Shown piece by piece: positions 6,938 to 62,576 of a stretch of 64,000 nucleotides of DNA. The notes beneath the pieces were generated by a model that saw only the letters and a list, made by a program, of their open reading frames with translations, made no database searches and was not told the origin of the DNA. Location of the stretch: assembly GCA_046331285.1 (NCBI GenBank), contig JAXLRD010000013.1:18700-82699 (forward strand), in the 5' to 3' direction. The translations under genes and the position numbers were made by a program. Within the stretch, counting starts at the first letter, position 1, and each line of letters opens with the position of its first letter. The DNA is from Vicinamibacteria bacterium. GTDB taxonomy: Bacteria; Acidobacteriota; Vicinamibacteria; Fen-336.

Positions 6938-6947
6938 GGGCGCGGGG

Positions 6948-6953
6948 ATTATA
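6948..6953 (-). promoter_or_regulatory. candidate -10 box TATAAT (minus strand) 10 nt upstream of the M28 ATG; the overlapping TATAGT on the plus strand faces the cupredoxin gene
   Basis: Plus strand reads ggGATTATAGTcgg. No purine-rich SD lies between the box and ATG 6937. Confidence 0.4.
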
Positions 6954-11054: not shown

Positions 11055-11117
11055 GCGCCAATGCTGCCGATTCGGTGTATCGTCCGTCAATCGAATCATC
11101 TTCGGAGGATCGACGAA

Positions 11118-11624
11118 ATGGCCGCCCTGAACCGAACGGACTTCGCCATCCTGGCCGCCTTGCAGAAGGATGCTCGGCTCTCGAACAAGGAGCTCGCCGC
11201 GAAGGTCGGCCTCGCGGCGTCGAGCTGCCTCGAGCGCGTGCGGCGGCTCCGGGAGACCGGCGTCCTCACCGGCTTCCGCGCCTTCGTCGACCCGGGCGCT
11301 CTCGGCATCGCGATCCAGGCCCTGGTCTTCGTCCGCCTCGCCCGCCACGCCCGAAAGCAGGTGCGCGAGTTCCGCGAGCACGCGCTGTCCCTCCCGGAGA
11401 CGATCGGCCTCTACCACGTCGCCGGCCAGCACGACTTCATCGTCCACGTCGGCGTCCGCGACGCGAACCACCTCCGCGACCTCGCGATGGACGCCTTCAC
11501 GAGCCGCCACGAGGTCGCCCGCATCGAGACGCACCTCATCTTCGAGCACGTGCCGAAGCCGGAGCTGCCGGTGCTGCGCGAGGCGGAGCTCCGCGGACGA
11601 CCGGCCCGGAGTGACGGCCGCTAA
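11118..11624 (+). CDS. Lrp/AsnC family transcriptional regulator
   Basis: MAALNRTDFAILAALQKDARLSNKELAAKVGLAASSCLERVRRLRETGVL (HTH) plus an RAM domain. It is divergent from the PLP enzyme. SD GGAGGA lies upstream. Confidence 0.9.
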   Translation: MAALNRTDFAILAALQKDARLSNKELAAKVGLAASSCLERVRRLRETGVLTGFRAFVDPGALGIAIQALVFVRLARHARKQVREFREHALSLPETIGLYHVAGQHDFIVHVGVRDANHLRDLAMDAFTSRHEVARIETHLIFEHVPKPELPVLREAELRGRPARSDGR

Positions 11625-13366
11625 ACCGCCACCCGCGCCAGGTCCGCTTCCAGCGACTCCAGCGACCCCGACAGCTCCCGCGGGAGCCGGTCCCCGAAGC
11701 GCTCGAAGAACGCGCGGATCTCGGGAATCTCCGCGGACCACTCGTGGCGGTCGACCGAGAGGAGAAGCTTCCGCTCGGCCGGCGACAGGTCGAGGCCGTC
11801 CCAGTCGAGAGCCGACTCGGTCGGGACGAGGCCGATCGGGGTCTCGGTCGCGGCGCCCTTGCCGGCGACGCGGGCCGCGATCCACAGCAGCACGCGCAGG
11901 TTCTGGCCGAAGCCGGGCCAGACGAAGCGGCCGCGCTCGTCCGTGCGGAACCAGTTGACGTGGAAGACGAGCGGCGGGTGCTTGACCTCGCGGCCGACGC
12001 GGAGCCAGTGGGCGAAGTAGTCGCCCATGTTGTAGCCGCAGAACGGGAGCATCGCCATGGGGTCGCGGCGGACGACCCCGACCGCGCCGGTGGCCGCGGC
12101 CGTCGTCTCCGAGCCCATCGTCGCGCCGACGAAGACGCCGTGCGCCCAGTCGCGGCTCTGGAACACGAGCGGGGCGACCCGCGCGCGGCGGCCGCCGAAG
12201 ACGATCGCCGAGAGCGGCACGCCCTGCGGGTCCTCCCAGCGGGGCGACATCGACGGGCACTGCCGCGCGGCGACGGTGAAGCGCGAGTTCGGGTGGGCCG
12301 CCTTGCCGCCGCCGTCCCAGGGCTTCCCCTGCCAGTCGACGAGGTCCTTCGGCGGGCTCTTGTCCTTGCCCTCCCACCACGGCACGCCGCCGGGCGTGAC
12401 GGCCACGTTCGTGAAGATCGTGTCGTGGGAGATCGTGGCGAGCGCGTTCGGGTTGGTGTCGGGCCCCGTGCCGGGCACGACGCCGAAGAAGCCGGCCTCG
12501 GGGTTCACCGCCCAGAGCCGGCCGTCGGGCCCCTGGCGCAGCCACGCGATGTCGTCGCCGACCGTGCGGACCCGGATGCCCTGCGCCTCGAACGGCGAGA
12601 CGAGCATCGCGAGGTTCGTCTTGCCGCAGGCCGAGGGGAACGCCGCGCCGATGTAGTGCGTCTCGCCGCCCGGCAGCTCCAGCTCGAGGACGAGCATGTG
12701 CTCGGCGAGCCAGCCCTGGTCGCGGGCCATCGTGGACGCGATGCGCAGCGCGAAGCACTTCTTGCCGAGGAGCGCGTTGCCGCCGTACCCCGAGCCGACG
12801 CTCCAGATCCTCCGCTCCTCGGGGAAGTGGACGATGAACCGGCGGTCCGGGGAGAGGTCGCCGAGCGAGTGGAGGCCGGGGACGAAGTCCTCGCCCGCCC
12901 CGAGCTGGTCGAGAGCGACCCGGCCCATCCGCGTCATGATCCGCATGTTCGCGACGACGTACGGGCTGTCGGTGACCTCGACGCCGACGCGGCTGAAGGG
13001 CGACCCCGGCGGGCCCATGACGTAGGGCACGACGTACATCGTCCGGCCCTTCATCGCCCCGGAGAAGAGCGGCCAGACGCGCTGGCGGGCCTCCTCCGGC
13101 GACATCCAGTTGTTGGTCGGCCCCGCGCCCTCGCGGGTGCGGCTGGCGATGAACGTCAGGTGCTCGGTGCGCGCCACGTCGGAGGGATGGCTGCGGTGGA
13201 GGTACGAGCCGGGCGCGACGGTCGGGTCGAGCGGCTGGAGCGTCCCGTTCTCGACCATGCCCGCGACGAGGCGCGCGTTCTCCGCGTCCGAGCCGTCGCA
13301 CCACTCGACCCTCGCCGGCCCGAGGGTGGCGGCGACCTCGTCGACCCATCGCTCGACTGGCTTCAT
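11621..13366 (-). CDS. pckG: phosphoenolpyruvate carboxykinase (GTP)
   Basis: 581 aa with clear GTP-PEPCK similarity along the full length (FPSACGKTN kinase-1a loop, WMSPEE, GYGGNALLGKKCFALRIAS). Confidence 0.95.
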   Translation of the reverse strand: MKPVERWVDEVAATLGPARVEWCDGSDAENARLVAGMVENGTLQPLDPTVAPGSYLHRSHPSDVARTEHLTFIASRTREGAGPTNNWMSPEEARQRVWPLFSGAMKGRTMYVVPYVMGPPGSPFSRVGVEVTDSPYVVANMRIMTRMGRVALDQLGAGEDFVPGLHSLGDLSPDRRFIVHFPEERRIWSVGSGYGGNALLGKKCFALRIASTMARDQGWLAEHMLVLELELPGGETHYIGAAFPSACGKTNLAMLVSPFEAQGIRVRTVGDDIAWLRQGPDGRLWAVNPEAGFFGVVPGTGPDTNPNALATISHDTIFTNVAVTPGGVPWWEGKDKSPPKDLVDWQGKPWDGGGKAAHPNSRFTVAARQCPSMSPRWEDPQGVPLSAIVFGGRRARVAPLVFQSRDWAHGVFVGATMGSETTAAATGAVGVVRRDPMAMLPFCGYNMGDYFAHWLRVGREVKHPPLVFHVNWFRTDERGRFVWPGFGQNLRVLLWIAARVAGKGAATETPIGLVPTESALDWDGLDLSPAERKLLLSVDRHEWSAEIPEIRAFFERFGDRLPRELSGSLESLEADLARVAV

Positions 13367-13372
13367 GCGCGG

Positions 13373-13378
13373 ATTCTA
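13373..13378 (-). promoter_or_regulatory. candidate -10 box TAGAAT 6 nt upstream of the pckG ATG (leaderless-type arrangement)
   Basis: Minus strand reads cgtcgTAGAATccgcgcATG. No SD is present. Confidence 0.45.
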
Positions 13379-13406
13379 CGACGACGGCGCCCGGCCGCCG
13401 CGCCGC

Positions 13407-14702
13407 CTACTCGAGCGGCGTGAACGGGTCGGCCACCGCCATCGCGAGGCGGCGCGCGAGCAGCTCCGCCGCCGGGCGGGACGCCTCGTCGCGGCTCAGC
13501 GCCTGCCGCACGACGGTCTCGACCGCGGGCGGGACGCGCGGGTTGAGCGCCCGCAGCGGCGTCGGCTCCTCCTCGGCCTGCATCGCGACGAGGGCGAGCG
13601 GGTCGGCCGAGGCGGTCATGAACGGCAGCCGTCCGCTGAGCATCTCGTAGAGCATCACGCCGACGCTGTAGACGTCCGACTTCGGCCCGTACGGGCCGCG
13701 CCGGAACCGCTCCGGCGCCATGTAGGCCGGGGTCCCGAGCAGCGAGCCGTCGAGCGTCAGCTTCTGCCCTATCGCGCTCTCGCCGACCAGCCGCGCGATC
13801 CCGAAGTCGAGGATCTTGGGCACCTCGCCGCTCGGCGTCGTGTGGAGGAACACGTTCGACGGCTTGATGTCGCGGTGCACGACGCCGACGCGGTGCGCGG
13901 CGGCGAGCGCGGCGCACACGGGGACCACGATCTCGGCCGCGCGCACGGCGGTGAGCGGACCGCGGTCCTCGATCTCCTTCTCCAGCGAGTGCCCCCGCAG
14001 GAGCTCCATCACCAGGTAGGCGATGCCGGCGTCGGTGACGCCGAAGTCGAGGACGGCCACCGCGTTCGGGTGCTGGACGCGGCAGGCGGAGGCGCCCTCG
14101 CGGCGGAAGCGGGCGAGGGCCTCGGGATCGGCCCCCGCGCTCGTCGCGAGGACCTTCACCGCCACGTCGCGGCCGAGCTCGAGGTGGCTGGCCTTGTACA
14201 CGGTGCCGAAGCTGCCCCCGCCGATCGCGGCCTCGAGCCGGTAGCGGCCGCCGAGGACCGTCCCCGGCCCGGCCTGGGCCGGCACGCGGGGCTCGATCGG
14301 GGCCGCCTCGACCCGCGCCGCGCTCCTCGTGCGCAGGTGCGCGCGGATCCGCGCGAGGGCCACCGGGAAGTCGACCGGCTTCGTGACGTAGTCGTTGGCC
14401 CCGAGCGAGAGCGCCTCGATCACGTCCTCGCTCTCGGTCTTCGCGGTGACCATGATGACCGGCAGCGAGGCCTCGGAGCGGCCGATGCGGACGCTGCGCA
14501 GGACGTCGATGCCGGTCATGCCCGGCATCATGATGTCGAGGAGCACCAGGTCGACGCTCGTCCGGCGGAGCACGTCGAGGGCCTCCTCGCCCCCGGCCGC
14601 GCAGACCACCTTGAAGCCGGCCCGCTCCAGCCGCCGGGCCAGCAGGTCGCGGTTCGCCGGCAGGTCGTCGACGACGAGGATGGTCGACGGGCCCTCGGTC
14701 AC
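13407..14702 (-). CDS. response-regulator receiver domain fused to a Hanks-type Ser/Thr kinase
   Basis: ILVVDD...DLVLLDIMMPGMTG...VIMVTAK...YVTKP form a complete REC domain. The kinase follows (GGGSFGTVYKA...AVKVL...HRDIKPSN...DFG...GTPAYMAPE). GTG 14702 overlaps the upstream stop (GTGA). Confidence 0.9.
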   Translation of the reverse strand: MTEGPSTILVVDDLPANRDLLARRLERAGFKVVCAAGGEEALDVLRRTSVDLVLLDIMMPGMTGIDVLRSVRIGRSEASLPVIMVTAKTESEDVIEALSLGANDYVTKPVDFPVALARIRAHLRTRSAARVEAAPIEPRVPAQAGPGTVLGGRYRLEAAIGGGSFGTVYKASHLELGRDVAVKVLATSAGADPEALARFRREGASACRVQHPNAVAVLDFGVTDAGIAYLVMELLRGHSLEKEIEDRGPLTAVRAAEIVVPVCAALAAAHRVGVVHRDIKPSNVFLHTTPSGEVPKILDFGIARLVGESAIGQKLTLDGSLLGTPAYMAPERFRRGPYGPKSDVYSVGVMLYEMLSGRLPFMTASADPLALVAMQAEEEPTPLRALNPRVPPAVETVVRQALSRDEASRPAAELLARRLAMAVADPFTPLE

Positions 14703-15616
14703 GCGCCTCCGCCCTGGGGGACGAAAGGCCCCGCCCGGAGCCAGCGGGACGGCAGCGCGCGGCCGAGCCGGGCCTCGAGCGACCGCGACGCCGCGGCGAC
14801 CGCCGCGACGTCGACGCCGGTCTCGATGCCCATGCCGTCGAGCATGTGGAGGAGGTCCTCGGTGGCGAGGTTGCCCGCGGCGCCGGGCGCGTACGGGCAG
14901 CCGCCGAGGCCGCCGGCCGAGCTGTCGACGACGGCGACGCCCTCGTCGAGAGCGGCGAGGACGTTGGCGAGCGCGGTCCCCCGCGTGTCGTGGAAGTGGG
15001 CGGCCAGCGACACGCCGGGCAGCGCTTCGCCGAGCGCGCCGAAGACGTCCGAGGCTCGTGTGGGCACCGCGACGCCGATGGTATCCCCGATCGACACCTC
15101 GTCGCATCCCGCCGCGGCCAGCCGCCGGGCCACCTCGACGACGCGCGCGGTCGGCACGTGGCCCTCGAAGGGACAGGCGAAGGCGGTCGACACGTAGCCG
15201 CGGACCCGGAGCCCCTCCCTCTTCGCCTCGGGGACGAACTCGGCGAATCGGGCGAAGGTCTCGTCGATCGAGGCGTTCGTGTTGCGGCGCGAGAACGTCT
15301 CGCTGGCCGCGGTGAAGACCGCGATCTCCCGCGCCCCGGCCGCCCGCGCCCGCTCCCAGCCGGCGCGGTTCGGCACGAGCACCGGCAGGCGCACGCCGGC
15401 GTGGCCGGCCAGGCGGCGCAGCACCTCGTCCGAGCCCGCCATCTGCGGGACCCACTTCGGGGAGACGAAGGCGCCCGCCTCGACGACCGGGAGGCCCGCC
15501 GCGATCAGCCCCTCGCAGAAGGCGACGCGCGCGTCGACGGAGAGGGAGGCCGCCTCGTTCTGCAGGCCGTCGCGCGGGCCGACCTCGACCACGGTGACGC
15601 GGCGCGGCCGGCTCAC
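14699..15616 (-). CDS. liuE: hydroxymethylglutaryl-CoA lyase
   Basis: VEVGPRDGLQNE...FVSPKWVPQM...HFHDTRGTALAN...GGLGGCPYAPGAAGN are the canonical HMGL motifs. GTG 15616 overlaps the upstream stop. Confidence 0.92.
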   Translation of the reverse strand: MSRPRRVTVVEVGPRDGLQNEAASLSVDARVAFCEGLIAAGLPVVEAGAFVSPKWVPQMAGSDEVLRRLAGHAGVRLPVLVPNRAGWERARAAGAREIAVFTAASETFSRRNTNASIDETFARFAEFVPEAKREGLRVRGYVSTAFACPFEGHVPTARVVEVARRLAAAGCDEVSIGDTIGVAVPTRASDVFGALGEALPGVSLAAHFHDTRGTALANVLAALDEGVAVVDSSAGGLGGCPYAPGAAGNLATEDLLHMLDGMGIETGVDVAAVAAASRSLEARLGRALPSRWLRAGPFVPQGGGA

Positions 15617-16092
15617 GGCTCGATCTCGAGGAGAGCCCGTCCGGGCGCGACCATGTCGCCGGGAGCCACGTGCACCGCCCGCACGACGCCGTCGCGGGGC
15701 GCGCGCAGCGCGTTCTCCATCTTCATGGCCTCGACGACGAGGAGCTCCTGGCCGCGGACGACGCGCTCCCCCGCGGCGACGTGGACGGCCGCCACCCGGC
15801 CCGGCATCGGCGCCTCGAGCCCGCCGGCGTCGTGGCGCGAGGAGGCGCGGCCGCCCTCGCGCTCTTCCTCGAGGGTGTAGGCGACGCCGTCCCAGAACGC
15901 GTGGACGGAGCCGCCGTCCCGCGCGAGGTGGAGCACTCGGGCGCAGCCCTCCGCGCGCACGAGGTAGACGCCCTCGTCCAGCCTCTCGAGACCGAGGGCG
16001 AGGGCGTCGCGGCCGAGGGCGACCTCGACCCCGGCGCCCTTCACGCGGACCACGGGCTCGAACACTCGGTCGCCGCAGCGGAGCCGGGTCAC
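15613..16092 (-). CDS. liuD: methylcrotonyl-CoA carboxylase alpha, C-terminal BT/biotinyl-carrier part (separate frame)
   Basis: 159 codons ending in the biotinyl domain LEAPMPGRV...LLVVEAMKMENALRAP. GTG 16092 overlaps the TGA of the BC ORF. It is normally fused to the BC part. Confidence 0.7.
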   Translation of the reverse strand: MTRLRCGDRVFEPVVRVKGAGVEVALGRDALALGLERLDEGVYLVRAEGCARVLHLARDGGSVHAFWDGVAYTLEEEREGGRASSRHDAGGLEAPMPGRVAAVHVAAGERVVRGQELLVVEAMKMENALRAPRDGVVRAVHVAPGDMVAPGRALLEIEP

Positions 16093-17594
16093 GCCCCGCC
16101 CCCGATCCGCCAGTGGCCGAGGCTCGACCACGGGTCGTCGGTCGCCGCGCCGCCGCCTCCTCCCGCCGGCCGCGCGCCAGCGGCGCGCAGCGCGGCGGCG
16201 ATCGCGGCGACCGCGACGGCCGGGGGGCAGGGCCCGGGCGTCAGCTCCGAGAGGTGCTCCTCGATGAAACCCGTGTGCAGCGCTCCCGCGGCGAAGGCCG
16301 GGTGCTCGACGATCGCGCGCAGGCGCGCGAGGTTCGTGCGCACGCCGAGGACGACCGTGTGCCGCAGCGCGTCGCGCATGCGCTCGACCGCCTCGGCGCG
16401 GCCGCCGCCCCAGGTGATCACCTTGGCGAGCAGCGGATCGTAGTGGACCGACACCTCGGCGCCGCGCGCGAGGCCCGAGTCCACGCGCACCCCGGGCCCC
16501 GCGGGCTCCGAGAGGTGCAGCACCCGGCCCGGCGAGGGCAGGTCGTCCCTCTCCGGGTCCTCCGCGTAGAGCCGGCACTCGAGGGCGTGGCCCCGCCGGA
16601 CGAGGCCGTCCTGCTCGAAGCCGATCGGCCGACCGGCCGCGACCTCCAGCTGGAGGCGCACGAGGTCGAGTCCCGTCACCGCCTCGGTCACCGGGTGCTC
16701 GACCTGGAGGCGCGTGTTCATCTCGAGGAAGGCGAAGGCGCCGTCGGGCCCGAGCAGGAACTCGACGGTGCCCGCGTTGACGTAGGCCGTCGCGCGCGCC
16801 GCGGCCACGCCGGCCGCGCACAGGGCGTCGCGCGACCGCGCGTCGAGGGCCGGGCTCGGGGTCTCCTCGACGACCTTCTGGTGGCGGCGCTGCACCGAGC
16901 ACTCGCGCTCCCCGAGGTGGAGCGTCCGGCCGCTCCCGTCGGCGAGCACCTGAACCTCGACGTGCCGGGGGCGCTCGACGAACCGCTCGAGGACCATCGC
17001 GTCGTCGCCGAACGCGGCCTTCGCCTCGCGGCGGGCGGAAGCGAGGGCCGCGGCGAAGTCGGCCTCCCCGCGCACGACGCGCATGCCCTTGCCGCCGCCG
17101 CCGCGCGAGGGCTTGATCATCAGCGGCCAGCCGACGCGGCGCGCCTCCGCGGCGAGGGTCGCGTCCTGCTGGTCGTCGCCGTCGTAGCCCGGGAGCACGG
17201 GCACGCCGGCCGCGGCCATCATCCTCCGGGCGGCCTTCTTGTCGCCCATCCGGCGGTGGACGTCGCCCGGAGGCCCCACGAACACCAGCCCGGCGTCCCG
17301 TACCGCGTCGGCGAAGTCGCCGTTCTGGCTCAGGAACCCGTAGCCGGGGTGGACCGCGTCGGCGCCCGTGCGGCGCGCCGCGGCGAGGATGGCGTCGATC
17401 GAGAGGTAGGACCGCCCGGCCTCCGCGGGCCCGATCTCCACCGCCTCGTCCGTCTCGCGCACGTGGCGGGCGCCCCGGTCGGCCTCGGAGAAGACGGCGA
17501 CCGTCGGCAGCCCCATGACCCGGCAGGTCCGCGCGACCCGGACCGCGATCTCGCCGCGGTTCGCGATCAGGACCTTGCGGAAGGGCCGGGCCAT
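16089..17594 (-). CDS. liuD: methylcrotonyl-CoA carboxylase alpha, biotin carboxylase part
   Basis: MARPFRKVLIANRGEIAVRVARTC...GGGGKGMRVV...EMNTRLQVEHPVTE. 501 aa, ending at a G-rich run just before the BCCP frame begins. Confidence 0.9.
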   Translation of the reverse strand: MARPFRKVLIANRGEIAVRVARTCRVMGLPTVAVFSEADRGARHVRETDEAVEIGPAEAGRSYLSIDAILAAARRTGADAVHPGYGFLSQNGDFADAVRDAGLVFVGPPGDVHRRMGDKKAARRMMAAAGVPVLPGYDGDDQQDATLAAEARRVGWPLMIKPSRGGGGKGMRVVRGEADFAAALASARREAKAAFGDDAMVLERFVERPRHVEVQVLADGSGRTLHLGERECSVQRRHQKVVEETPSPALDARSRDALCAAGVAAARATAYVNAGTVEFLLGPDGAFAFLEMNTRLQVEHPVTEAVTGLDLVRLQLEVAAGRPIGFEQDGLVRRGHALECRLYAEDPERDDLPSPGRVLHLSEPAGPGVRVDSGLARGAEVSVHYDPLLAKVITWGGGRAEAVERMRDALRHTVVLGVRTNLARLRAIVEHPAFAAGALHTGFIEEHLSELTPGPCPPAVAVAAIAAALRAAGARPAGGGGGAATDDPWSSLGHWRIGGGA

Positions 17595-17601
17595 GCCGCG
17601 C

Positions 17602-19260
17602 TCAGCTCGTCTCCGGCCCGCCGAGCCACCGCGCGACGAGCACGGTCACGTCGTCGTACTGGGGCACGTCGGCCGCGAACTCCTCGACGCGGTCGACGAG
17701 GCCGCGGACGAGCGCGGCCGGGGGCGCGCCGGCCGAGGCCGCGAGGTGCTTCTCGAGGCGGAGGACGTGGAACTCCTCGCCCGCGGGGCTGCGCGCCTCG
17801 ACGACGCCGTCGGTGTAGAGGACGAGGGTGTCGCCCCGGCCGAGCCGCGCGGTCGCCCCGCGGTACTCCTGGCCCTCGACCGCCCCGAGCGCCGGCGCGG
17901 AGGGCTCGCCGAACACGACGAGCCGCCCCTCCCGGTCGAGGCGGTACGGCGGGTTGTGGCCGGCGTTCACGTACTCGAGCTCGCCCGTCGCGAGGTCGAG
18001 GCGGGCGACGAAGGCGGTGACGAACATCGCGCGGTCGTTGTCGCGCGCGAGCTCCGCGTTCATCCGCTCGACCGCGGAGGCCACGGTCGCGGCGCCCTGG
18101 GCGACGGCGCGGAAGAGCGTCTTCGTCACCGCCATGAAGAGGGCGGCCCCGACGCCCTTGCCGGAGACGTCGCCGATCATCAGCCAGACGCGCCCGCCGT
18201 CGCCGAGGACGTCGTAGAGATCGCCGCCGACGGAGCGCGCCGGCCGGAGGTTCGCCGCGACCTCGATCTCCGGCCGGTCCGGGAACGCCCGCGGCAGCAT
18301 CGCCATCTGGATGTCGTGGGCGAGCTCGAGCTCGCGGTCGAGGAGGCGCCGCCGGGCCGCCTCCTCGGTGAGGGCGATGTTGCGGATGCGGAGGGCGGCG
18401 GCCGAGGCCAGCGCCACGAGCAGCTCGAGGTCGCCTTCCTCGAAGGGACGCGGCCGGTGGGCGCAGCCGAGGGCGATCATGCCGAGGCAGCCCTCGTCGT
18501 CGAGAAGCGGGGCCGCGATCAGGGTGCGGACGCCGGAGATGACGAGGCTCTCCGACGCGGCGAAGCGCTCGTCGAGCCCGGTGTCGACGACGAGCGCGGC
18601 GACGCCCTTCTCGGTCACTTCCTGGGCGAGCCGCCGCGAGTAGCCGAAGTCGTCCTTCGTCCCCGGCGAGCGCCGGCTGGCCGCGCGGTCGAACGTGCCG
18701 TCCGGCCGCCGCAGGAACACGGCCCCCTGGTCGGGCGCGAGGTGGGTGAAGGCGCTCTCGAGGATGAGCTCGAGGAGCGCCTCGAGGGTGATCGGCGAGG
18801 CCAGGCGCTTGTGGACCTCGTTGAGGAGGCGCAGCCGGCCCGCCGCGCGCGCGTCGGCGGTGGGGGCCACTCCATCCTCCGAGGAGAGGAACACCGAGGC
18901 GTGGCGCAGGACCGTGCGGCCCGACAGCTCGCCGGCCTCGAGCCCGTCGTCGCCGCGCGCGACGGCCTCTTCGTCCTCGACCACGATGCGGCTCTCCGCG
19001 AGGCGGATGACGTCGCCGGCGCGGACGACCGTCGCCTCGCCGAGCGGCCGATCGTTGAGGTACGTCGTGTTCCGCGACCCGAGGTCCTCGAGGAACCACC
19101 CGCCCTCGCGCCGCGACAGCCGCGCGTGGAGCCGCGAGAGGAAGCGGTCGTTGACGACCACGTCGGCCTTGCTCGAGCGGCCGAGGACGAGCGAGTCGCC
19201 CTCGAGGGAGCGGACGAACGGCTCGCCCTCGCGCGGCTCGATCCGCAGGCGCAGGACCAC
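17602..19260 (-). CDS. FHA - GAF - PP2C (SpoIIE/RsbU-type) protein phosphatase
   Basis: FHA (LVLGRSSKADVVVNDRFLSRLHARL...NTTYLN), then GAF, then PP2C (VGGDLYDV...IGDVSGKGVGAALFM...NAGHNPP...LYTDGVVEA). GTG 19260 lies 2 nt after the STAS stop. The start is uncertain. Confidence 0.85.
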   Translation of the reverse strand: MVLRLRIEPREGEPFVRSLEGDSLVLGRSSKADVVVNDRFLSRLHARLSRREGGWFLEDLGSRNTTYLNDRPLGEATVVRAGDVIRLAESRIVVEDEEAVARGDDGLEAGELSGRTVLRHASVFLSSEDGVAPTADARAAGRLRLLNEVHKRLASPITLEALLELILESAFTHLAPDQGAVFLRRPDGTFDRAASRRSPGTKDDFGYSRRLAQEVTEKGVAALVVDTGLDERFAASESLVISGVRTLIAAPLLDDEGCLGMIALGCAHRPRPFEEGDLELLVALASAAALRIRNIALTEEAARRRLLDRELELAHDIQMAMLPRAFPDRPEIEVAANLRPARSVGGDLYDVLGDGGRVWLMIGDVSGKGVGAALFMAVTKTLFRAVAQGAATVASAVERMNAELARDNDRAMFVTAFVARLDLATGELEYVNAGHNPPYRLDREGRLVVFGEPSAPALGAVEGQEYRGATARLGRGDTLVLYTDGVVEARSPAGEEFHVLRLEKHLAASAGAPPAALVRGLVDRVEEFAADVPQYDDVTVLVARWLGGPETS

Positions 19261-19262
19261 GG

Positions 19263-19601
19263 CTACCCGGCGAGCCGCGCGAGCGCCTGCGGCCGCGCCG
19301 CCTCGATCGCGAACAGCGGCAGGAAGCCCGCGAGCTCGAGGACACCCTTCACCGCCGGCCCGAGGCCGCACAGGACGAGGGCGGCGGGAGGCTCCTTCAG
19401 CCGCTTCGCCGCCATCAGCAGCACGCGCAGGCCGGCGCTGCTGACGTACTCGACGCCGGCGAGGTCGAGCACCAGCCGGCGCTGGCCGGCGTCGATCCGC
19501 GTCACCACGAAGCGCTCGAGCTCGCTCGAGCTCACCGAGTCGAGGCGGCCGAGCGGCGCGATCACCAGCGCCCGCTCCGCCCGCTCCTCGTCGATCCGCA
19601 T
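19263..19601 (-). CDS. STAS-domain anti-sigma-factor antagonist (RsbV/SpoIIAA-like)
   Basis: 112 aa. LVLDLAGVEYVSSAGLRVLL contains the conserved phosphorylatable Ser context. ATG 19601 overlaps the upstream stop (TGATG). Confidence 0.88.
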   Translation of the reverse strand: MRIDEERAERALVIAPLGRLDSVSSSELERFVVTRIDAGQRRLVLDLAGVEYVSSAGLRVLLMAAKRLKEPPAALVLCGLGPAVKGVLELAGFLPLFAIEAARPQALARLAG

Positions 19602-20056
19602 CACCCGCCCTCCTGGCCCTCGATCGCGACGAGACGCCGCCGCAGACGCAGGCGGTTCGTCCCGCCGGCGCGCTCGTAGACCACCTCGTCCATCAGACGC
19701 CGCACGAGCGCGATGCCGAGCCCGCCGATCGGACGCTCCTCGACCCCCAGCGCCGTGTCGGGCGCAGCCGCGGAGAGCGGGTCGAAGGCCGGGCCGTCGT
19801 CTTTCACCACGACCTCGCACGCCGGCGCCCCGGCCGACGCGTCGAGCGCGAACTCGACCTCGACCCTCGCGTCCGCGCGCCCGCCCGCGCCGTGGTGGAC
19901 GACGTTGGCCAGCACCTCGTCGAGCGACACCTCGACCGGCCAGGTCACCGCCTTCGAGAGGCTGGCGGCGGCGAAGAGGGCCGCGAGGGCATCGAGCGCC
20001 TCGCGGACACCCTCGTCGCTGGCCGGCACGCTGAGGCGTCGGGTCTCGAGCGACAT
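19601..20056 (-). CDS. RsbW/SpoIIAB-like HATPase_c serine kinase (anti-sigma regulatory factor)
   Basis: LDEVLANVVHHG (N box), VKDDGPAFDP (G1) and IGGLGIALVRRLMDEV (G2). ATG 20056 chosen because GAGGAG lies 6 nt upstream. The track ORF begins 13 codons earlier. Confidence 0.85.
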   Translation of the reverse strand: MSLETRRLSVPASDEGVREALDALAALFAAASLSKAVTWPVEVSLDEVLANVVHHGAGGRADARVEVEFALDASAGAPACEVVVKDDGPAFDPLSAAAPDTALGVEERPIGGLGIALVRRLMDEVVYERAGGTNRLRLRRRLVAIEGQEGG

Positions 20057-20173
20057 CCCGCTCCTCGCGACGGAGGAAAAAGTGGAGGGCATCATACAAC
20101 GGCGCCTCCGCGGGGCGCGGCTCGGCCGGATGTGCTAACGTCGCGCCAACTTTCCCTCGGCCTTCCGGTACTT

Positions 20174-20713
20174 ATGGTGGATGACGCTCCGGACAACGCT
20201 CTCGTCGCGCGCTGCCTCACGGGAGACGTCGAGGCCTTCGCACCTCTCGTGCGCCGCTACGAGCGCGTCCTCTACAACGTCGCCCTGCGGATGCTCGGCG
20301 ACCGGGAGGAGGCCCGGGACGTCACCCAGGACGCTTTCCTCAAGGCCTTCCAGAAGCTCGACACCTTCGACCCGAGCTACCGCTTCTTCAGCTGGATGTA
20401 CCGGATCGTGGTGAACGAGTCGCTGAACGCGCGGGGCCGCCGGGCGCCGGTGGCCCCCCTCGAGATCGACCTGCCGGCGGCCGCCCGCGCCGACGACGGC
20501 CTGAGGGAGCGCGAGGTGCGGGACCGGGTGCAGGCGGGGCTCGCGCGGCTGGCTCGGACCGACCGCGAGGTGATCGTCCTGAGGCACTTCGCGGAGCTCA
20601 GCTACGCCGACATCGCGGTGTCGCTGGGCATCGCCGAGAAGACGGTGAAATCGCGGCTCCACGAGGCGCGCCAGCGCCTCGGACGCGCCCTCGAACAGGG
20701 GATCCACGGATGA
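20174..20713 (+). CDS. ECF (sigma-70 family, group 4) RNA polymerase sigma factor
   Basis: Region 2 is FAPLVRRYERVLYNVALRMLGDREEARDVTQDAFLKAF...FFSWMYRIVVNESLN. Region 4 is REVIVLRHFAELSYADIAVSLGIAEKTVKSRLHEAR. Confidence 0.92.
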   Translation: MVDDAPDNALVARCLTGDVEAFAPLVRRYERVLYNVALRMLGDREEARDVTQDAFLKAFQKLDTFDPSYRFFSWMYRIVVNESLNARGRRAPVAPLEIDLPAAARADDGLREREVRDRVQAGLARLARTDREVIVLRHFAELSYADIAVSLGIAEKTVKSRLHEARQRLGRALEQGIHG

Positions 20714-21825
20714 GCGGCAAGACCCTCGAAGAGCTGATCGACGGCGAGGTCGAGGGGGCGAACACGCCCCTGGAGTCGGCCCGCCTCCGGGAGTGGGCCG
20801 CCCGCGAGCCGGCCGTCGCCGAGCGCCTCGAAGTCCACCGGAGGGCGGCGGCCGCGCTGGCCGAGGCCGCCCGGGAGAACGCCCCCGCGGGCCTCCGGGA
20901 CACGGTCCTCGAAAAGGTTCGAGCCGGGGGCTCGGAGAGCCAACTTTCCCCCGCGTCCAATGTACTGGTCGATAGCACCCCATCTGACGGGAACTGGGCC
21001 GGTCGGCGAGGCCGTGGAGGATCGAGCATGGCGACGAGCAGGAAGGTCTTGGTGGGCATCGCGGCGGCGGCCGTCCTCGCGATCGGCTACTTCGCCGTCA
21101 ACGGCTTCCCGCCGGTCGGCCCGGGCGCCGAGGGAACGGTCGGCGCGGCCAAGCGCTACCAGTCCGAGCAGATGAACGCCGGCGACGTGACGGTCCAGGA
21201 CGACGGTGTCCAGGCCCTGCTCCAGAGCGACGACTTCCGCCGCGTGGTCGCCGACAAGGAGACGCGGGCGATCCTGACGAGCCGCGAGTTCCAGAGGGCC
21301 GTCTCCGACGCCTCGGTGCAGGCCGTCCTCCACCAGCTCGCCACCGACAAGTCGTTCGCGGACAGCATCCGACTCGCCGCGGCCGACGGCGCGGCGCAGA
21401 AGCTGTTCGCCGACGCGGCTCGCAGCGCGGCGGCGGCTGATGCCGCTCGCTCCGGCGCGGCTGACGCGGCTCGCTCGGGTGCGGCTGATGCGGCTCGCTC
21501 CGGCGCGGCCGATGCCGCCCGCTCCGGCGCGGCCGACGCCGCTCGCTCCGGCCTGCTGAGCCTCGCCTCGCACAACCAGGCGTTCGCGCAGCTGGCCCGC
21601 AACGAGGCCTTCGCCAAGGCTCTCCAGAACGGCGCCTTCGCCAGCCTGCTGTCGAACCAGAGCTTCGCCGGATCTGATCAGCAACCCGGCCGCCGCCGGA
21701 CTGCTCTCGAGCGGCGCCTTCCAGCAGGCCATCGCGAGCGGCGCGGTGCAGAAGGCCGTCGACGCGGCCGCGGGCGGAGCGGCGGGCGGAGCGGTCGCCC
21801 GCTAGACCGGCAACGCCGGGCCTGA
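20710..21825 (+). CDS. putative single-pass anti-sigma factor with a repetitive extracytoplasmic domain
   Basis: ATGA overlap with the ECF gene. Cytoplasmic N-terminus of about 70 aa, TM VLVGIAAAAVLAIGYFAV, then an Ala/Phe-rich repeat region with (AADAARSG)x5. The last 50 codons look frame-shifted; an alternative frame ends at 21805. Confidence 0.6.
   Translation: MSGKTLEELIDGEVEGANTPLESARLREWAAREPAVAERLEVHRRAAAALAEAARENAPAGLRDTVLEKVRAGGSESQLSPASNVLVDSTPSDGNWAGRRGRGGSSMATSRKVLVGIAAAAVLAIGYFAVNGFPPVGPGAEGTVGAAKRYQSEQMNAGDVTVQDDGVQALLQSDDFRRVVADKETRAILTSREFQRAVSDASVQAVLHQLATDKSFADSIRLAAADGAAQKLFADAARSAAAADAARSGAADAARSGAADAARSGAADAARSGAADAARSGLLSLASHNQAFAQLARNEAFAKALQNGAFASLLSNQSFAGSDQQPGRRRTALERRLPAGHRERRGAEGRRRGRGRSGGRSGRPLDRQRRA
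21433..21552 (+). repeat. 24-bp tandem repeat x5 (plus a degenerate unit at 21409-21432), in frame, encoding AADAARSG
   Basis: gcggctgatgccgctcgctccggc and four near-identical units run head to tail. They differ mainly at third codon positions. Confidence 0.9.
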
Positions 21826-21840
21826 GGGTCCGGGTCGCTC

Positions 21841-21870
21841 GAGGAGCGCCGCCCGCGGGCGGCGCTCCTC
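21841..21870 (+). terminator. perfect 13-bp GC hairpin after the anti-sigma gene
   Basis: gaggagcgccgcc-cgcg-ggcggcgctcctc, followed by gacgcgTTTc. It lies 16 nt after stop 21825 and 32 nt before the next start. Confidence 0.6.
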
Positions 21871-21901
21871 GACGCGTTTCGACGGCTCGAGGAAGGAGAG
21901 C

Positions 21902-24844
21902 GTGGCCCACCCCCGAAGAGCGCTGCTCGCCGCCGCACTGCTGCTGACCGCCGCCGCCTCGCCCGCCCGCGCCCAGCTCAAGGAGCTGGAGACGAAGGAC
22001 CTGCGGCTCGTCTACTTCGACCCCTCGCTCGCCTACCTCACGCCCCACGTCGGCCGCTGCTTCGAGAACGCGCTCGCGTTCCACCGGAACCTCTTCGACT
22101 ATCGGCCCTCGGGCAAGGTCACCCTCCTCCTCGACGACTTCACGGACAACGGCAACGCCGCCGCGACGGCGGTCCCGCGGCCGTTCGTGAAGATCGACGT
22201 GGCGCCGCTGTCGTTCGCCCTCGAGACGATCGTGGCCAACGAGCGCGTGAACTGGCTCATGAACCACGAGCTCGTCCACGTCACGGCGAACGACGGGGCG
22301 GCGGGGGCCGACCGCTTCTTCCGCGGCCTCTTCCGGGGGACGGCGACGGCCGTACCGGCGCAGCCCGAGAGCATCCTGTACTTCTACCTGACGGCCCCCC
22401 GCGCGGCGGCGCCCCGCTGGTACCAGGAGGGCCTCGCGGTCTTCGTCGAGACCTGGATGGCCGGCGGCCAGGGGCGGGCGCAGGGCGCCTACGACGAGAT
22501 GGTCTTCCGGTCGATGGTGAGGGACGGGGCGCGCTTCTACGACCCGCTCGGCCTCGTCTCGGAGGGCGTCAAGGTCGACTTCCAGACCGAGGTGAACTCG
22601 TACCTCTACGGCACGCGCTTCGTGAGCTGGCTCGCGCGGACGCGCTCGCCGGAGGACGTCGTGAAGTGGGGCGCGCGGGGCCGGGACAGCCGCGCCTACT
22701 ACTCGTCCCAGTTCCGCCACGTCTTCGGCGTGCCGCTCGAGAAGGCGTGGCAGGACTGGGTCCTGTGGGAGAAGGGCTTCCAGGAGAAGAACCTCGCGGC
22801 GATCCGGCGCTACCCGACGACGCCCTGCGAGGACCTCTCGAAGCAGCCGCTCGGGTCGATGTCGCAGGCCTTCTACGACGCGCGGCGGAAGGTCCTCTAC
22901 GCCGGCGTCAACTACCCGGGCGTCGTCTCGCACGTCGCGGAGATCTCGACCGAGACGGGCGCCGTGCGGCGGATCGCCGACATCAAGGGCCCGAGGATCT
23001 ACACCGTCACGTCCCTCGCGTACGACCCGACGGCCGGGCGGCTCTTCTACACCGCCGACAACAACGCGTACCGCGACCTCGTGTCGCTCGACCCCGCCAC
23101 CGGGAAGCAGAGGATGCTCCTGCGCGACGCCCGCATCGGGGAGCTCGTCTTCGACGCCGCCACGGGATCGCTGTGGGGCATCCGCGCCCTCAACGGGATC
23201 GTCACCCTCGTGAGGATCCCGCCTCCCTACAAGGACTACGTCTCGGTCCACACCTGGGCCTACGGCGAGGTCGTCTACGACCTCGACGTCTCGCCCGACG
23301 GCACGCTCGTCTCCGCCTCGTTCGGCGACGCGGCCGGCCGGCAGTCGCTCCGCGTGATGAAGACGGAGGCGCTGGCGAAGGGCGACGCGACGCCCGTCGC
23401 GACCTTCGACTTCGGCGCCGCGATCCCCTCCGACTTCGTCTTCGCGCCGGACGGGAAGTCGCTCTACGGCAGCTCCTACTACACGGGCGTGTCGAACGTG
23501 TTCCGCTACGACCTCGCGAGCGGGAAGCTCGACGCGATGAGCAACACCGAGACCGGCTTCTTCCGGCCGGTCCCGGTGGGCGGCGACGAGCTCGTCGTCT
23601 TCCGCTACACGGGCCGGGGCTTCGTCCCCGCCCGCGTCCACGCGGCCCCGCTCGAGGACGTGAACCCGATCACGTTCCTCGGCGCGGAGATCGCCGAGGC
23701 CCACCCGGTCGTGAAGGGCTGGAAGCTCGGCTCGCCGGCCACGGTGCCGCTCGACTCGCTCGTCGTGCGCCGCGGGACCTACCACTCCGTCCGCCGCATC
23801 GGCCTCGAGTCGATCTACCCGGTGGTGCAGGGCTACAAGGACTTCGCCGCGTACGGGCTGCGCGCGAACTTCTCGGACCCGGTGATCCTCAACCGCGCGT
23901 ACCTCACCGCCACCTACACGCCCGACTCCGCCCTCCCGGCGAACGAGCGCTACCACGTCCAGGGCGAGCTGCAGCGCTACGACTGGACGGTCGGGTTCCA
24001 GGTGAACGGGGCGGACTTCTACGACCTCGTGGGGCCGACCCGCACGAGCCTCAAGGGCTACGGCATCGGCACGAGCTACAAGCGCACCCTCGTCTACGAC
24101 CAGCCGCGGCAGATGGACCTGAAGGTGGGCGTCACGTACTACGGCAACCTCGACCGCGTGCCGGACTACCAGGGCGTCGCGACGAACTTCACCGACGAGC
24201 TCGCGGCGCGGGCGCGGCTGAGCTACCGGAACTACAAGCACTCGCTCGGCTACGTGGACGAGGAGAAGGGGATCGGCTGGGACCTCGGCTACTCGGGGGA
24301 CCGCGTGAAGGGCGACGTGTTCACGCGCTTCTTCGGCAACCTCGACCTCGGCGCGCCCCTCCCGATCCGCCACTCGTCCGTCTGGCTGCGCACCTCGGCG
24401 GGCTGGTCGCCGGACGACCGGCAGGAGCCGTTCGCGAACTTCTACTTCGGCGGGTTCCGCAACAACTGGGTCGACTGGCGGGAGGAGAAGCGCTACCGCG
24501 ACCCCGAGTCGTTCCCCGGGCTCGACATCAACGAGGTCGGCGGGACGAGCTACGGCCGGGCGATGGTCGAGTGGAACCTGCCGCCCCTGCGCTTCCGCCG
24601 CGCCGGGACGCCCGGCTTCTACCTCACCTGGGCGCGGCCGGCCCTCTTCGCCTCGACCCTCGTCACGAACCCGGGCTCCTCTGCCTTCCGCCGCACGATC
24701 TCGAACGTCGGCGGGCAGGTGGACTTCCGCTTCGGCATCCTGTCCCGCCTCGAGCTGACCCTCTCGGCCGGCTACGCGGCGGCGTTCGAGAGCGGGCGGA
24801 AGACGAAGAACGAGGCGATGGTCTCGCTCAAGATCCTGCGCTGA
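21902..24844 (+). CDS. secreted 980-aa protein: HExxH metallopeptidase-like domain - beta-propeller-like middle - C-terminal beta-barrel-like region
   Basis: GTG after GGAAGGAGAG. Signal peptide ...AAASPARA/QL. NWLMNHELVHV plus WYQEGLAVFVE. Repeated ...PDG(T/K)... strands. The C-terminal 350 aa show alternating aromatic/Gly-rich strands (YGLRANF, YGIGTSY, GYSGD, VDFRFG). Confidence 0.7.
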   Translation: MAHPRRALLAAALLLTAAASPARAQLKELETKDLRLVYFDPSLAYLTPHVGRCFENALAFHRNLFDYRPSGKVTLLLDDFTDNGNAAATAVPRPFVKIDVAPLSFALETIVANERVNWLMNHELVHVTANDGAAGADRFFRGLFRGTATAVPAQPESILYFYLTAPRAAAPRWYQEGLAVFVETWMAGGQGRAQGAYDEMVFRSMVRDGARFYDPLGLVSEGVKVDFQTEVNSYLYGTRFVSWLARTRSPEDVVKWGARGRDSRAYYSSQFRHVFGVPLEKAWQDWVLWEKGFQEKNLAAIRRYPTTPCEDLSKQPLGSMSQAFYDARRKVLYAGVNYPGVVSHVAEISTETGAVRRIADIKGPRIYTVTSLAYDPTAGRLFYTADNNAYRDLVSLDPATGKQRMLLRDARIGELVFDAATGSLWGIRALNGIVTLVRIPPPYKDYVSVHTWAYGEVVYDLDVSPDGTLVSASFGDAAGRQSLRVMKTEALAKGDATPVATFDFGAAIPSDFVFAPDGKSLYGSSYYTGVSNVFRYDLASGKLDAMSNTETGFFRPVPVGGDELVVFRYTGRGFVPARVHAAPLEDVNPITFLGAEIAEAHPVVKGWKLGSPATVPLDSLVVRRGTYHSVRRIGLESIYPVVQGYKDFAAYGLRANFSDPVILNRAYLTATYTPDSALPANERYHVQGELQRYDWTVGFQVNGADFYDLVGPTRTSLKGYGIGTSYKRTLVYDQPRQMDLKVGVTYYGNLDRVPDYQGVATNFTDELAARARLSYRNYKHSLGYVDEEKGIGWDLGYSGDRVKGDVFTRFFGNLDLGAPLPIRHSSVWLRTSAGWSPDDRQEPFANFYFGGFRNNWVDWREEKRYRDPESFPGLDINEVGGTSYGRAMVEWNLPPLRFRRAGTPGFYLTWARPALFASTLVTNPGSSAFRRTISNVGGQVDFRFGILSRLELTLSAGYAAAFESGRKTKNEAMVSLKILR

Positions 24845-30752: not shown

Positions 30753-30759
30753 CGACGGC

Positions 30760-30765
30760 AGTATA
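30760..30765 (-). promoter_or_regulatory. candidate -10 box TATACT 7 nt upstream of the hydratase ATG
   Basis: Minus strand reads ccgTATACTgccgtcgATG, within the 22-nt gap after the EamA stop. Confidence 0.35.
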
Positions 30766-32994: not shown

Positions 32995-33000
32995 TATTCT
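32995..33000 (+). promoter_or_regulatory. candidate -10 box TATTCT 9 nt upstream of the methyltransferase ATG
   Basis: ctgcTATTCTccgcgaacgATG, with no SD. Confidence 0.3.
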
Positions 33001-33009
33001 CCGCGAACG

Positions 33010-50640: not shown

Positions 50641-50646
50641 GCGATT

Positions 50647-50719: not shown

Positions 50720-50728
50720 CGGTGACGC

Positions 50729-57970: not shown

Positions 57971-57976
57971 CGCGCC

Positions 57977-62568: not shown

Positions 62569-62576
62569 GGCCCGCT

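Follow-up and report, generated by a model that had tools for sequence, protein, structure and literature searches.

A seven-gene block in Vicinamibacteria as a probable fusion of a partner-switch unit with a leucine-catabolic operon

A block of seven minus-strand genes (20056-13407) was analysed in a stretch of 64,000 nucleotides from a Vicinamibacteria bacterium (GCA_046331285.1, contig JAXLRD010000013.1), referred to below as the window. In the order of reading, the genes encode an RsbW-like kinase, a STAS antagonist and an FHA-GAF-PP2C phosphatase (together, module A), followed by the biotin carboxylase (BC) part and the BT-BCCP (biotin carboxyl carrier) part of the methylcrotonyl-CoA carboxylase (MCCase) alpha subunit, HMG-CoA lyase (HMGL), and a fusion of a receiver (REC) domain with a Hanks Ser/Thr kinase (together, module B). 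The original prediction had taken the seven genes for one operon that may wire a partner switch to leucine catabolism. On comparison with related loci, we consider it probable, at about 0.6, that the block is a head-to-tail fusion, specific to this lineage, of two units that are autonomous in soil Vicinamibacteria.

The comparison covered about 45 related loci (given here by L numbers), with the PP2C phosphatase, the REC-kinase, the BT-BCCP open reading frame (ORF), the element upstream of BC and a 980-aa protein of the divergent neighbouring cluster as seeds. The relatives of the locus are metagenome-assembled genomes (MAGs) of Vicinamibacteria (Acidobacteriota), on which ground an actinobacterial origin, as the 74% GC content might suggest, was rejected. 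The matches listed in the genome scan with the REC-kinase are a lower bound and do not show the absence of this kinase from a genome, and the scan with the BT-BCCP ORF was dominated by the generic biotinyl motif, giving few useful loci, among them L122-L124. The gene content, the intact motifs, the synteny patterns and the conservation and loss of the element described below were observed directly.

Module A is directly followed by module B in the window and in nine relatives (L001, L002, L005, L202, L203, L204, L205, L207 and L221), with a PP2C identity of 61-84%. An extra SpoIIE gene separates the two modules in L219, and 5-6.6 kb of unrelated genes lie between them in L007, L206 and L216. 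Module A was found without B in L003, L004, L006, L008 and L208 (PP2C identity 47-54%) and in L223 (65%), where no B gene was present within the 3.4 kb of sequence available. The next gene after A in these loci, where identified, was gyrB or a gene for glutamate dehydrogenase, an M28 peptidase, a beta-lactamase or a Metallophos/Lon protein. Module B was present without A in at least four genomes (L042, L122, L211 and L217). The PP2C-BC adjacency is kept in nine relatives, is broken by insertion in at least four and is absent in six. In all, the PP2C/BC boundary is broken by insertions, an extra gene or deletions in at least nine loci.

The arrangement in L042 and L217 is informative about the limits of the two units. 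In both, the orthologue of a Hanks kinase with TPR repeats (85-88% identity), which in the window lies at the far end of the divergent cluster, is directly beside BC, and the order BC-BCCP-HMGL-REC-kinase-pck is intact. This juxtaposition of the two flanks indicates that the whole cassette (the genes for PrsW, the 980-aa protein, the anti-sigma protein and the ECF sigma factor, plus RsbW-STAS-PP2C) was lost from these genomes and module B was kept. A lone degenerate RsbW-like ORF is situated between the TPR kinase and a fused MCCase alpha gene in L217 (L217:1149-1544). It is without the N-box Asn/His and without the G2 box, and is apparently a relic of the deleted cassette.

A short conserved element marks the start of module B. 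In ten relatives (L001, L002, L005, L007, L042, L043, L202, L204, L205 and L207), the sequence TGTG(C/G)TGAA(C/G)TAG is present 3-5 nt before the GTG start codon of BC. The counterpart before BC in L203 is TGTGTTGAACTAAC, and L206 carries a canonical TAGACT in exactly the same register. A -10-like element was therefore identified before BC in 12 of 12 distinct relatives, as TGTGnTGAAsT in 11 and as TAGACT in one (L206). The hexamer is followed by 6-7 nt and then by the BC start codon. The pattern occurs once per locus and always at BC, and a scan of 185,579 species genomes for the element together with the BC start returned 13 stretches, 11 of which were this locus. Its variation is confined to the 'n' of TGTGn and to hexamer position -8.

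The spacer between the PP2C stop codon and BC forms a graded series. Spacers of 28-71 nt that contain the element are found in six relatives (L001, L002, L005, L203, L205 and L207). In L202 and L204, the closest relatives of the window (82-84% PP2C identity), the spacer is reduced to 9 nt and the PP2C stop codon lies inside the element. The window is at the end of the series, with a spacer of 7 nt and an element that has decayed to CGAGCTGAGCG; the minus-strand segment with the PP2C stop, the spacer and the degenerate element (17595-17612) reads CGAGCTGAGCG-CGGC-ATG. Compared with the 12 relatives, only the window has a degenerate element, and its BC start codon has changed from GTG to ATG.

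The positions at which the element varies, the TAGACT of L206, the spacing of 6-7 nt, the arrangement in L042 and the leaderless genes of the window all fit a -10 box. A divergent unit begins with BC in L042, so that the BC promoter must sit there in the short spacer. We infer that the BC-proximal element is an extended -10 sequence that serves as a leaderless promoter of module B. Two other interpretations of the 14-nt element, a three-codon upstream ORF and a palindromic operator, were set aside, as the variation pattern and the TAGACT of L206 fit a -10 box better. Leaderless geometry is also seen elsewhere in the window, where eight genes, pck included, have a TANNNT hexamer starting 12-16 nt before the start codon and no Shine-Dalgarno sequence (6938-6953, 13367-13378, 30753-30765, 32995-33009, 50641-50652, 50714-50728, 57971-57982 and 62569-62582). 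Leaderless mRNAs thus seem to be common in this organism.

In the window itself, BC has no Shine-Dalgarno sequence at a usable distance, which suggests that it depends on upstream translation. As the element of module B has decayed and the spacer measures 7 nt, module B is probably read through from the promoter of module A. The candidate for that promoter is a TATGAT -10-like box at 20091-20096 (minus strand), an intergenic TANNNT hexamer before the RsbW-like gene, from which the seven-gene unit is likely to be transcribed. TATGAT or TATCAT is present at the matching site in eight relatives (L001, L003, L005, L006, L007, L008, L203 and L204). A TAGAAT box (13373-13378, minus strand) lies 6 nt before the ATG of pck, in leaderless geometry, and is kept in L202 and L203. 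The pck gene (11621-13366, minus strand) encodes a GTP-dependent phosphoenolpyruvate carboxykinase (NCBIfam NF003253, 874 bits) and is the kept downstream neighbour of module B, following the REC-kinase in L001, L042, L043, L202, L203 and L217.

The packing of the seven genes, their coordinates, their domains and their junctions, as given in the original prediction, were all borne out by the ORF, Pfam and junction checks, and the domain calls for the partner-switch genes were correct. The GC content of the window is 73.7%. All seven ORFs have a third-position GC (GC3) of 0.93-0.99 in the claimed frame, and the sliding frame plot changes frame at every junction. In order, the junctions are a TGATG (-1), gaps of +2 and +7 nt, and three GTGA overlaps (-4 each). 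Four TANNNT hexamers were found on the minus strand between 13300 and 20140. Two are intergenic and are exactly the TATGAT and TAGAAT boxes that had been proposed; the other two lie within BC and HMGL, and no intergenic TANNNT was found within the block. A consensus scan of 11000-22000 showed no minus-strand terminator-like or sigma-70-like sites, the block had no Rfam match, and the junction regions folded no better than shuffled sequence and formed no stable hairpin. No structured RNA, riboswitch or terminator was thus found at the junctions, in agreement with the claim that the block has no internal hairpin or -10-like island. No sigma factor is encoded in the block, as had also been stated.

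The claim of a single operon fared less simply. One strand, junctions of -4 to +7 nt and no internal promoter-like or terminator-like site make it plausible in this genome, but the arrangement is not conserved as an operon, since relatives carry an internal -10-like element of their own before BC and the PP2C/BC boundary is so often broken. With regard to an internal transcription start, which would separate the signalling genes from the leucine genes, a candidate element is present in every relative examined and none in the window. The single seven-gene operon is thus probably real in this genome, as the end point of a fusion.

The three genes of module A have the protein features of an RsbW/RsbV/RsbU-type module, with a HATPase_c_2 kinase, a single-domain STAS protein with its serine, and a SpoIIE/PP2C phosphatase. 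The RsbW-like serine kinase or anti-sigma-type protein (19601-20056, minus strand; 151 aa) matches the full HATPase_c_2 profile (PF13581, 91 bits). Its ATP-binding boxes are present (N box EVLANVVHH, G1 DDGPAFD, G2 GGLGIAL), and it gives weak RsbW equivalog matches and can be aligned to Bacillus subtilis RsbW (6m36). The STAS anti-sigma-factor antagonist (19263-19601, minus strand; 112 aa) scores 60 bits for STAS and 67 bits for TIGR00377 (cutoff 53), and its Ser55 (VSSAG) is aligned with the phosphorylated Ser58 of SpoIIAA.

The FHA-GAF-PP2C phosphatase of the SpoIIE/RsbU type (17602-19260, minus strand; 552 aa) matches FHA, GAF and SpoIIE with 66, 50 and 180 bits, respectively. The SpoIIE domain (PF07228) covers profile positions 1-191 of 192, with the GDVSGKG, YTDG and DDVT motifs present, and its best match in the PDB is Rv1364c. 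In the FHA domain (PF00498), the residues that recognise phosphothreonine (pThr; GR/SxxH/N) are intact (LGRS, SRLH, RNTTYLN), as aligned to GarA/OdhI and 1uht. The FHA-GAF-PP2C architecture was present in more than 100 metagenomic clusters at 51-84% identity. No identical-sequence records were found for the PP2C and BC proteins of the window. No group-3 sigma gene was identified in the block; the tblastn search of the window used its own ECF sigma factor as query, and group-3 sigma factors were not searched directly. The same search showed no second ECF-type sigma gene in the window.

The BC part of MCCase alpha (16089-17594, minus strand; 501 aa) has the Biotin_carb_N, CPSase_L_D2 and Biotin_carb_C domains. 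In the PDB it scores best with 9yx0_D (535 bits; deposited as 'biotin carboxylase'), Pseudomonas aeruginosa MCC alpha (3u9s, 522 bits) and the human protein (517 bits), and its residues 3-496 align to residues 6-498 of the 3u9s chain. The BT-BCCP part (15613-16092, minus strand; 159 aa) contains Biotin_lipoyl and the biotinylation motif EAMKMEN, and was aligned to residues 529-651 of P. aeruginosa MCC alpha; PF21139 (BT_MCC_alpha) gave a weak match in the L205 orthologue. Judged by these alignments, the two ORFs together make up MCCase alpha, with the break lying in the BT domain or ahead of it. Relatives keep the split, which in the window has a 4-nt overlap, and a single fused protein of 633 aa was found only in L217 (L217:1607-3508). 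A frameshift or pseudogene was rejected as the cause of the split, since all relatives checked have the two ORFs in different frames, overlapping by 4 nt or 1 nt. Split alpha genes are also present in some other phyla (L125, L133, L143 and L167).

The MCCase beta (carboxyltransferase) gene is situated at 34153-35760 (minus strand; Carboxyl_trans, 506 bits), which excludes a position inside or adjoining the block. The protein scores 775 bits with human MCCB, 769 with P. aeruginosa MCC beta and 459 with geranyl-CoA carboxylase beta. Typical propionyl-CoA carboxylase beta subunits score 282 bits or less, and one entry deposited under that name scores 772. The gene is 14 kb away from the alpha genes and comes directly downstream of a gene for phosphofructokinase (35764-36885, minus strand), and no other leucine-catabolic genes were found nearby. 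The identification of a two-gene MCCase alpha in the original prediction thus stands, with the added detail that the split is genuine and conserved and that the beta partner lies outside the block.

HMGL (14699-15616, minus strand; 305 aa) scores 162 bits for HMGL-like and 392 bits for NF004283 (cutoff 246), a match that spans residues 1-295 of 300, and 304 bits with human HMGCL (2cw6). The REC-Hanks Ser/Thr kinase (13407-14702, minus strand; 431 aa) matches Response_reg (PF00072) with 105 bits and Pkinase (PF00069) with 168 bits. The receiver has its acidic pocket, Asp, Thr and Lys (VVDD, LLDIMMPG, IMVTA, YVTKP), and the kinase has its GGGSFG, VAVK, HRDIKPSN, DFG and MAPE motifs. In every relative checked by overlap, the BC/BCCP junction is a 4-nt or 1-nt overlap and the BCCP/HMGL and HMGL/REC-kinase junctions are 4-nt overlaps; the HMGL/REC-kinase overlap is kept in six relatives. 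The exceptions, among loci with called genes, are L204 and L207, which have 13-20 nt before HMGL. As the junctions of module B are tight overlaps in relatives, the REC-kinase goes firmly with the leucine-catabolic genes rather than with the switch. Literature searches brought up no account of a REC-Hanks kinase fusion with a link to leucine catabolism and nothing specific on kinase control of bacterial MCCase.

The conserved partner of module A lies on the other side, in a cassette on the plus strand. The first gene (20174-20713; 179 aa) encodes a sigma factor of the extracytoplasmic function (ECF) type (TIGR02937, 106 bits against a cutoff of 43). SigW models are among its better named NCBIfam matches, below their cutoffs, and its orthologues show Sigma70_r2 and Sigma70_r4_2. 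The second gene (20710-21825) encodes a putative membrane anti-sigma protein. Its predicted anti-sigma domain rests on weak NCBIfam matches (residues 7-169, E = 1e-7, below cutoff), with no Pfam match, and a transmembrane (TM) helix is present. The periplasmic part has five tandem AADAARSG repeats (residues ~240-280); the repeats of the orthologues differ (VREALAKAD in L226, FRQALASD in L229). From about residue 100 onwards, the part with the TM helix and the repeats is a separate gene in L229 and L226, and the ORF of the window thus has the look of a fusion between an anti-sigma domain and a TM-repeat protein.

Two ECF-type promoter motifs were identified on this side. The first, CCAACTT-N16-GTACT, lies before the ECF gene (20145-20172, plus strand). 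The second, GCCAACTTTC-N-TGTACT (20939-20966, plus strand), lies inside the anti-sigma ORF, just before the in-frame Met107 (nt 21028), and the TM-repeat part may also be made alone from this internal promoter. The pattern CCAACTT-N16-GTAyT was observed twice in the window, against 0.01 expected. The motif at the ECF gene is kept with a variable spacer in L003, L004, L005 and L007, and the internal motif in L001, L005 and L007. AAGTTGG is visible in all relatives aligned at the intergenic region, save L006, where the stretch is N-masked. An extended -10-like sequence, TGTGCTAACGT (20131-20141, plus strand), is found upstream of the ECF-type promoter, with counterparts in L001 (CGTGCTATGGT), L003 (TGTGCTATAAG) and L008 (TGTGGTATAAG); the ECF gene may have a housekeeping promoter besides the autoregulated one. 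No CCAACTT-N16-GTAyT motif was present upstream of A or B, the two ECF-side sites being the only copies in the window, and the ECF sigma factor does not therefore appear to drive the block. No ECF-dependent promoter was thus found for the switch or the leucine genes.

Further along the plus strand, the window encodes a 980-aa exported protein (21902-24844) with a signal peptide and NHELVH (HExxH), without a Pfam family; a GH9-like protein; a PrsW-family intramembrane protease (26686-27729; PF13367, 66 bits against a cutoff of 23.5); and, on the outer flank, the Hanks kinase with TPR repeats (27773-29950; Pfam). In about 45 loci, the genomes of which have 50-74% GC, the 980-aa protein is encoded beside PrsW, at 42-92% identity. 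It was always found with ECF/PrsW genes, and the PrsW gene is beside the 980-aa gene in most loci. The TPR kinase has orthologues of 85-89% identity in L005, L042, L205, L207, L217 and L223 and of 98% in L224. It is unusually conserved, with 85-89% identity where that of the PP2C phosphatase is only 61-67%.

In every locus with an FHA-GAF-PP2C orthologue that is long enough to tell, the RsbW-like gene is divergent from the ECF sigma gene across a shared intergenic region of 117-350 bp, and the anti-sigma, 980-aa and PrsW genes follow. A metagenome scan seeded with the 980-aa protein added more distant clusters (42-61% identity, 50-72% GC). Partner-switch genes were found beside the ECF/980-aa/PrsW cluster in at least five different arrangements. 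L229 has a co-directional RsbW-STAS-ECF-anti-sigma-TM-repeat-980aa-PrsW order, with a 36-nt gap before the ECF gene. In L230-L233 and L244, only STAS is present, in divergent orientation to the ECF gene and without RsbW nearby. In L225 and L226, GAF-PP2C-STAS is divergent from TM-repeat-980aa-PrsW, and no ECF sigma or RsbW is present. L239 has PP2C-RsbW-STAS in convergent orientation just after PrsW, and L240 has RsbW divergent from the ECF gene. When a neighbourhood survives rearrangement, this is classically taken as a sign that its genes are functionally coupled. This persistence and the co-deletion in L042 and L217 place the switch with the ECF/PrsW envelope cassette.

The original prediction had named two possible outputs of the switch, leucine catabolism and the divergent ECF sigma factor. 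Comparative genomics favours the latter, but not the wiring to the leucine-catabolic genes, as A and B occur independently. The output of the switch is thus most probably the ECF pathway and not the metabolic genes. Under the fusion reading, unit A would be part of a larger accessory envelope-signalling cassette that resembles sigmaW/RsiW/PrsW and comprises the ECF sigma factor, the anti-sigma protein, the 980-aa HExxH protein and PrsW. The RsbW-like kinase would phosphorylate Ser55 of the STAS protein, and the FHA-GAF-PP2C phosphatase would remove the phosphate when its FHA domain (with a pThr ligand from a Hanks kinase) and/or its GAF domain (with a small ligand) is engaged. The unphosphorylated STAS protein would then capture the kinase, freeing the partner of the kinase. 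The best candidate for this partner would be a component of the ECF pathway, either the sigma factor itself, in line with the gene order of L229, or the anti-sigma protein.

Unit B would be a translationally coupled leucine/isovalerate-catabolic operon which, with the unlinked beta subunit, would turn 3-methylcrotonyl-CoA and HMG-CoA into acetoacetate and acetyl-CoA. The REC-kinase probably acts downstream of a histidine kinase and couples a His-Asp phosphorelay to the phosphorylation of metabolic targets. In the relatives B would start from its own -10-like element, and here probably only by read-through from the TATGAT promoter. What we infer, for the mechanism from established knowledge of the protein families, is promoter function, co-transcription, every step of protein binding and phosphorylation, and which target the switch has.

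Several observations weigh against this reading. The element before BC has a G, and not the near-invariant A, at position -11. The ECF sigma factor already has a putative membrane anti-sigma protein and a PrsW protease, and a second anti-sigma of the RsbW type is consequently not required. The main text of the ECF classification paper is silent on RsbW-/STAS-type regulators (PMC7826278). The related loci are mostly MAG or metagenome contigs, some of them frameshifted. The adjacency of A and B persists in nine relatives at 61-84% PP2C identity, and this persistence, together with the shrinkage of the spacer, could reflect selection for co-expression and not drift. Among the phosphatases, only the Vicinamibacteria version contains the FHA domain (L226 and L239 have GAF-PP2C alone), and the cassette of that lineage has Hanks kinases on either side. 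In Blastocatellia (L020:9503-13788 and L013), a tight operon encodes a REC-PP2C protein, a Hanks kinase whose C terminus carries an FGE-sulfatase domain, and RsbW and STAS proteins, the RsbW-like gene having a 4-nt overlap with the preceding gene; cross-talk between kinase and switch in Acidobacteria is plausible given the kinase in this operon.

A link from a kinase to the FHA domain is possible but unsupported. Three Hanks kinases are encoded within the 64 kb (a dCache-HAMP-kinase at 7704-9779 on the plus strand, the REC-kinase and the TPR kinase), and proximity to a kinase is therefore cheap. Module A is also present without a REC-kinase nearby, and the REC-kinase without module A. Should the link exist, the TPR kinase and the REC-kinase would be equally good candidates for it.

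An integrated circuit, in which the REC-kinase places pThr on the FHA domain and so feeds the switch, with leucine catabolism as the output or with a link between leucine catabolism and the ECF sigma factor, is decidedly unlikely. The probable single transcript of the seven genes, the A-B order kept in nine relatives, the intact FHA residues and kinase and receiver motifs, and the Blastocatellia operon all speak for it. The two modules, however, each occur alone, the A cassette is deleted beside an intact B, and B has its own conserved start element in all relatives; FHA-GAF-PP2C orthologues at 47-54% identity (65% in L223) are followed by unrelated genes or have no B in reach. Furthermore, nearness to one of three Hanks kinases means little, the partner kept by the switch across taxa is the ECF/PrsW cluster and not the leucine-catabolic genes, and nothing points to MCCase or HMGL binding an RsbW-type protein. 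It is very unlikely that the two units are still expressed separately in the window, from an unrecognised internal promoter or by processing, with the adjacency as inherited synteny without selective value. The start element inside the locus in relatives, the frequent rearrangement of the PP2C/BC boundary by insertions, an extra gene or deletions, and the poor state of knowledge on acidobacterial promoters would fit this explanation. The 7-nt gap, however, holds no TANNNT, ECF-type motif or terminator-like hairpin, the ancestral element is visibly degraded with a GTG to ATG change at the BC start, and the lack of a usable Shine-Dalgarno sequence hints at dependence on upstream translation.

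A specific sub-case of the fusion reading is that the RsbW-like protein acts as a second, cytoplasmic anti-sigma on the divergent ECF sigma factor and is released by the STAS protein and the phosphatase; this we hold to be unlikely. The divergent RsbW-like and ECF genes with their shared 117-350 bp in every orthologous locus, the sigmaB-like order RsbW-STAS-ECF on one strand in L229 (36-nt gap), the divergent pair in L240, and the joint loss of the ECF genes and the switch in L042 are consistent with direct binding. Known RsbW/SpoIIAB targets, however, are group-3 sigma factors, and the ECF sigma factor is already provided with a putative anti-sigma domain protein and PrsW. STAS, and not RsbW, appears to be the constant companion, since L230-L233 and L244 keep STAS beside the ECF gene without RsbW, and L225 and L226 keep STAS and PP2C with neither the ECF gene nor RsbW. 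In addition, the Bordetella switch beside the ECF sigma factor BtrS works by an unknown, non-anti-sigma route (PMC7498569). A broader combination, with the switch as an undescribed cytoplasmic layer of a sigmaW-like cassette that is welded to a leucine operon and has the REC- or TPR kinase feeding its FHA domain, is a long shot. If true, branched-chain amino-acid catabolism and a His-Asp phosphorelay would feed envelope sigma control.

Tight packing in a single genome says little about functional wiring. In this case, a dozen relatives make it possible to interpret the junction as a recent fusion of operons, the stages of which form a graded series. Three leads come out of the analysis for this little-studied and largely uncultivated class of soil bacteria: the persistent association of a partner switch with an ECF/PrsW envelope cassette, the translational coupling of a REC-Hanks kinase to enzymes of leucine catabolism, and a widespread leaderless promoter geometry. 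The most useful products are the operon-fusion series, the association of the switch with ECF/PrsW and the coupling of the REC-kinase to leucine catabolism. If the switch controls the ECF sigma factor, RsbW/RsbV-type regulation would reach beyond group-3 sigma factors.

Compared with the RsbU-RsbV-RsbW-sigmaB and SpoIIE-SpoIIAA-SpoIIAB-sigmaF modules of Bacillus, module A has the three protein families in common, and the catalytic motifs are intact. The block differs in having no adjacent group-3 sigma gene and in its gene order W-V-U. The phosphatase has FHA and GAF inputs instead of the RsbU N-domain or the SpoIIE membrane domain, and the kept neighbour of the module is an ECF sigma factor with its own putative membrane anti-sigma. 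The sigmaW-RsiW-PrsW system of B. subtilis comprises an ECF sigma factor, a single-pass membrane anti-sigma and a PrsW-family site-1 protease, to which the ECF sigma factor, the putative anti-sigma protein and PrsW of the cassette would correspond. Here, in contrast, the PrsW gene belongs to the cassette itself, as does that for a 980-aa exported HExxH protein; the putative anti-sigma domain is joined to a TM-repeat protein, with an internal ECF-type promoter, and a partner switch adjoins the cassette.

Several well-documented partner switches have no sigma gene beside them, among them HsbR/HsbA and SiaABC of Pseudomonas, SypE/SypA of Vibrio and RbaVWY of Rhodobacter. In a review on Leptospira, an action of RsbW-/STAS-type proteins on ECF sigma factors is put forward as no more than speculation (PMC12655853). 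The original prediction had presented the wiring as new, which was overstated, as such switches have been described, and so has one near an ECF sigma factor and metabolic genes: the btr locus of Bordetella combines the ECF sigma factor BtrS, its anti-sigma BtrA, the BtrU/BtrW/BtrV switch and metabolic genes in one locus (PMC7498569). The likeness extends to the trio of PP2C, RsbW-like kinase and STAS, to an ECF sigma factor with its own anti-sigma (putative in the window), to the interspersed metabolic and transport genes, and to a switch whose target is not the classical sigma factor. The btr locus differs in controlling type III secretion in a proteobacterial pathogen, and is without the FHA/GAF inputs, PrsW, the 980-aa protein, the leucine-catabolic genes and the Hanks kinase.

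The actinobacterial PknG/PknB-GarA/OdhI system has a logic similar to that first proposed for the block, in that a Hanks kinase makes pThr, an FHA domain reads it, and amino-acid status is passed on to metabolism. GarA and OdhI are among the best matches of the FHA domain (PDB, NCBIfam). The FHA domain is here fused to a partner-switch PP2C phosphatase and is not an inhibitor of metabolic enzymes. With respect to the liu/MCCase-HMGL genes (P. aeruginosa MCC, PDB 3u9s), BC and BCCP are collinear with MCC alpha, and MCC beta and HMGL are clear orthologues. In contrast to the liu genes, alpha is divided in two (BC 501 aa, BT-BCCP 159 aa), beta is unlinked, the operon is without an isovaleryl-CoA dehydrogenase or hydratase gene, and a REC-Hanks kinase is present as a translationally coupled fourth gene.

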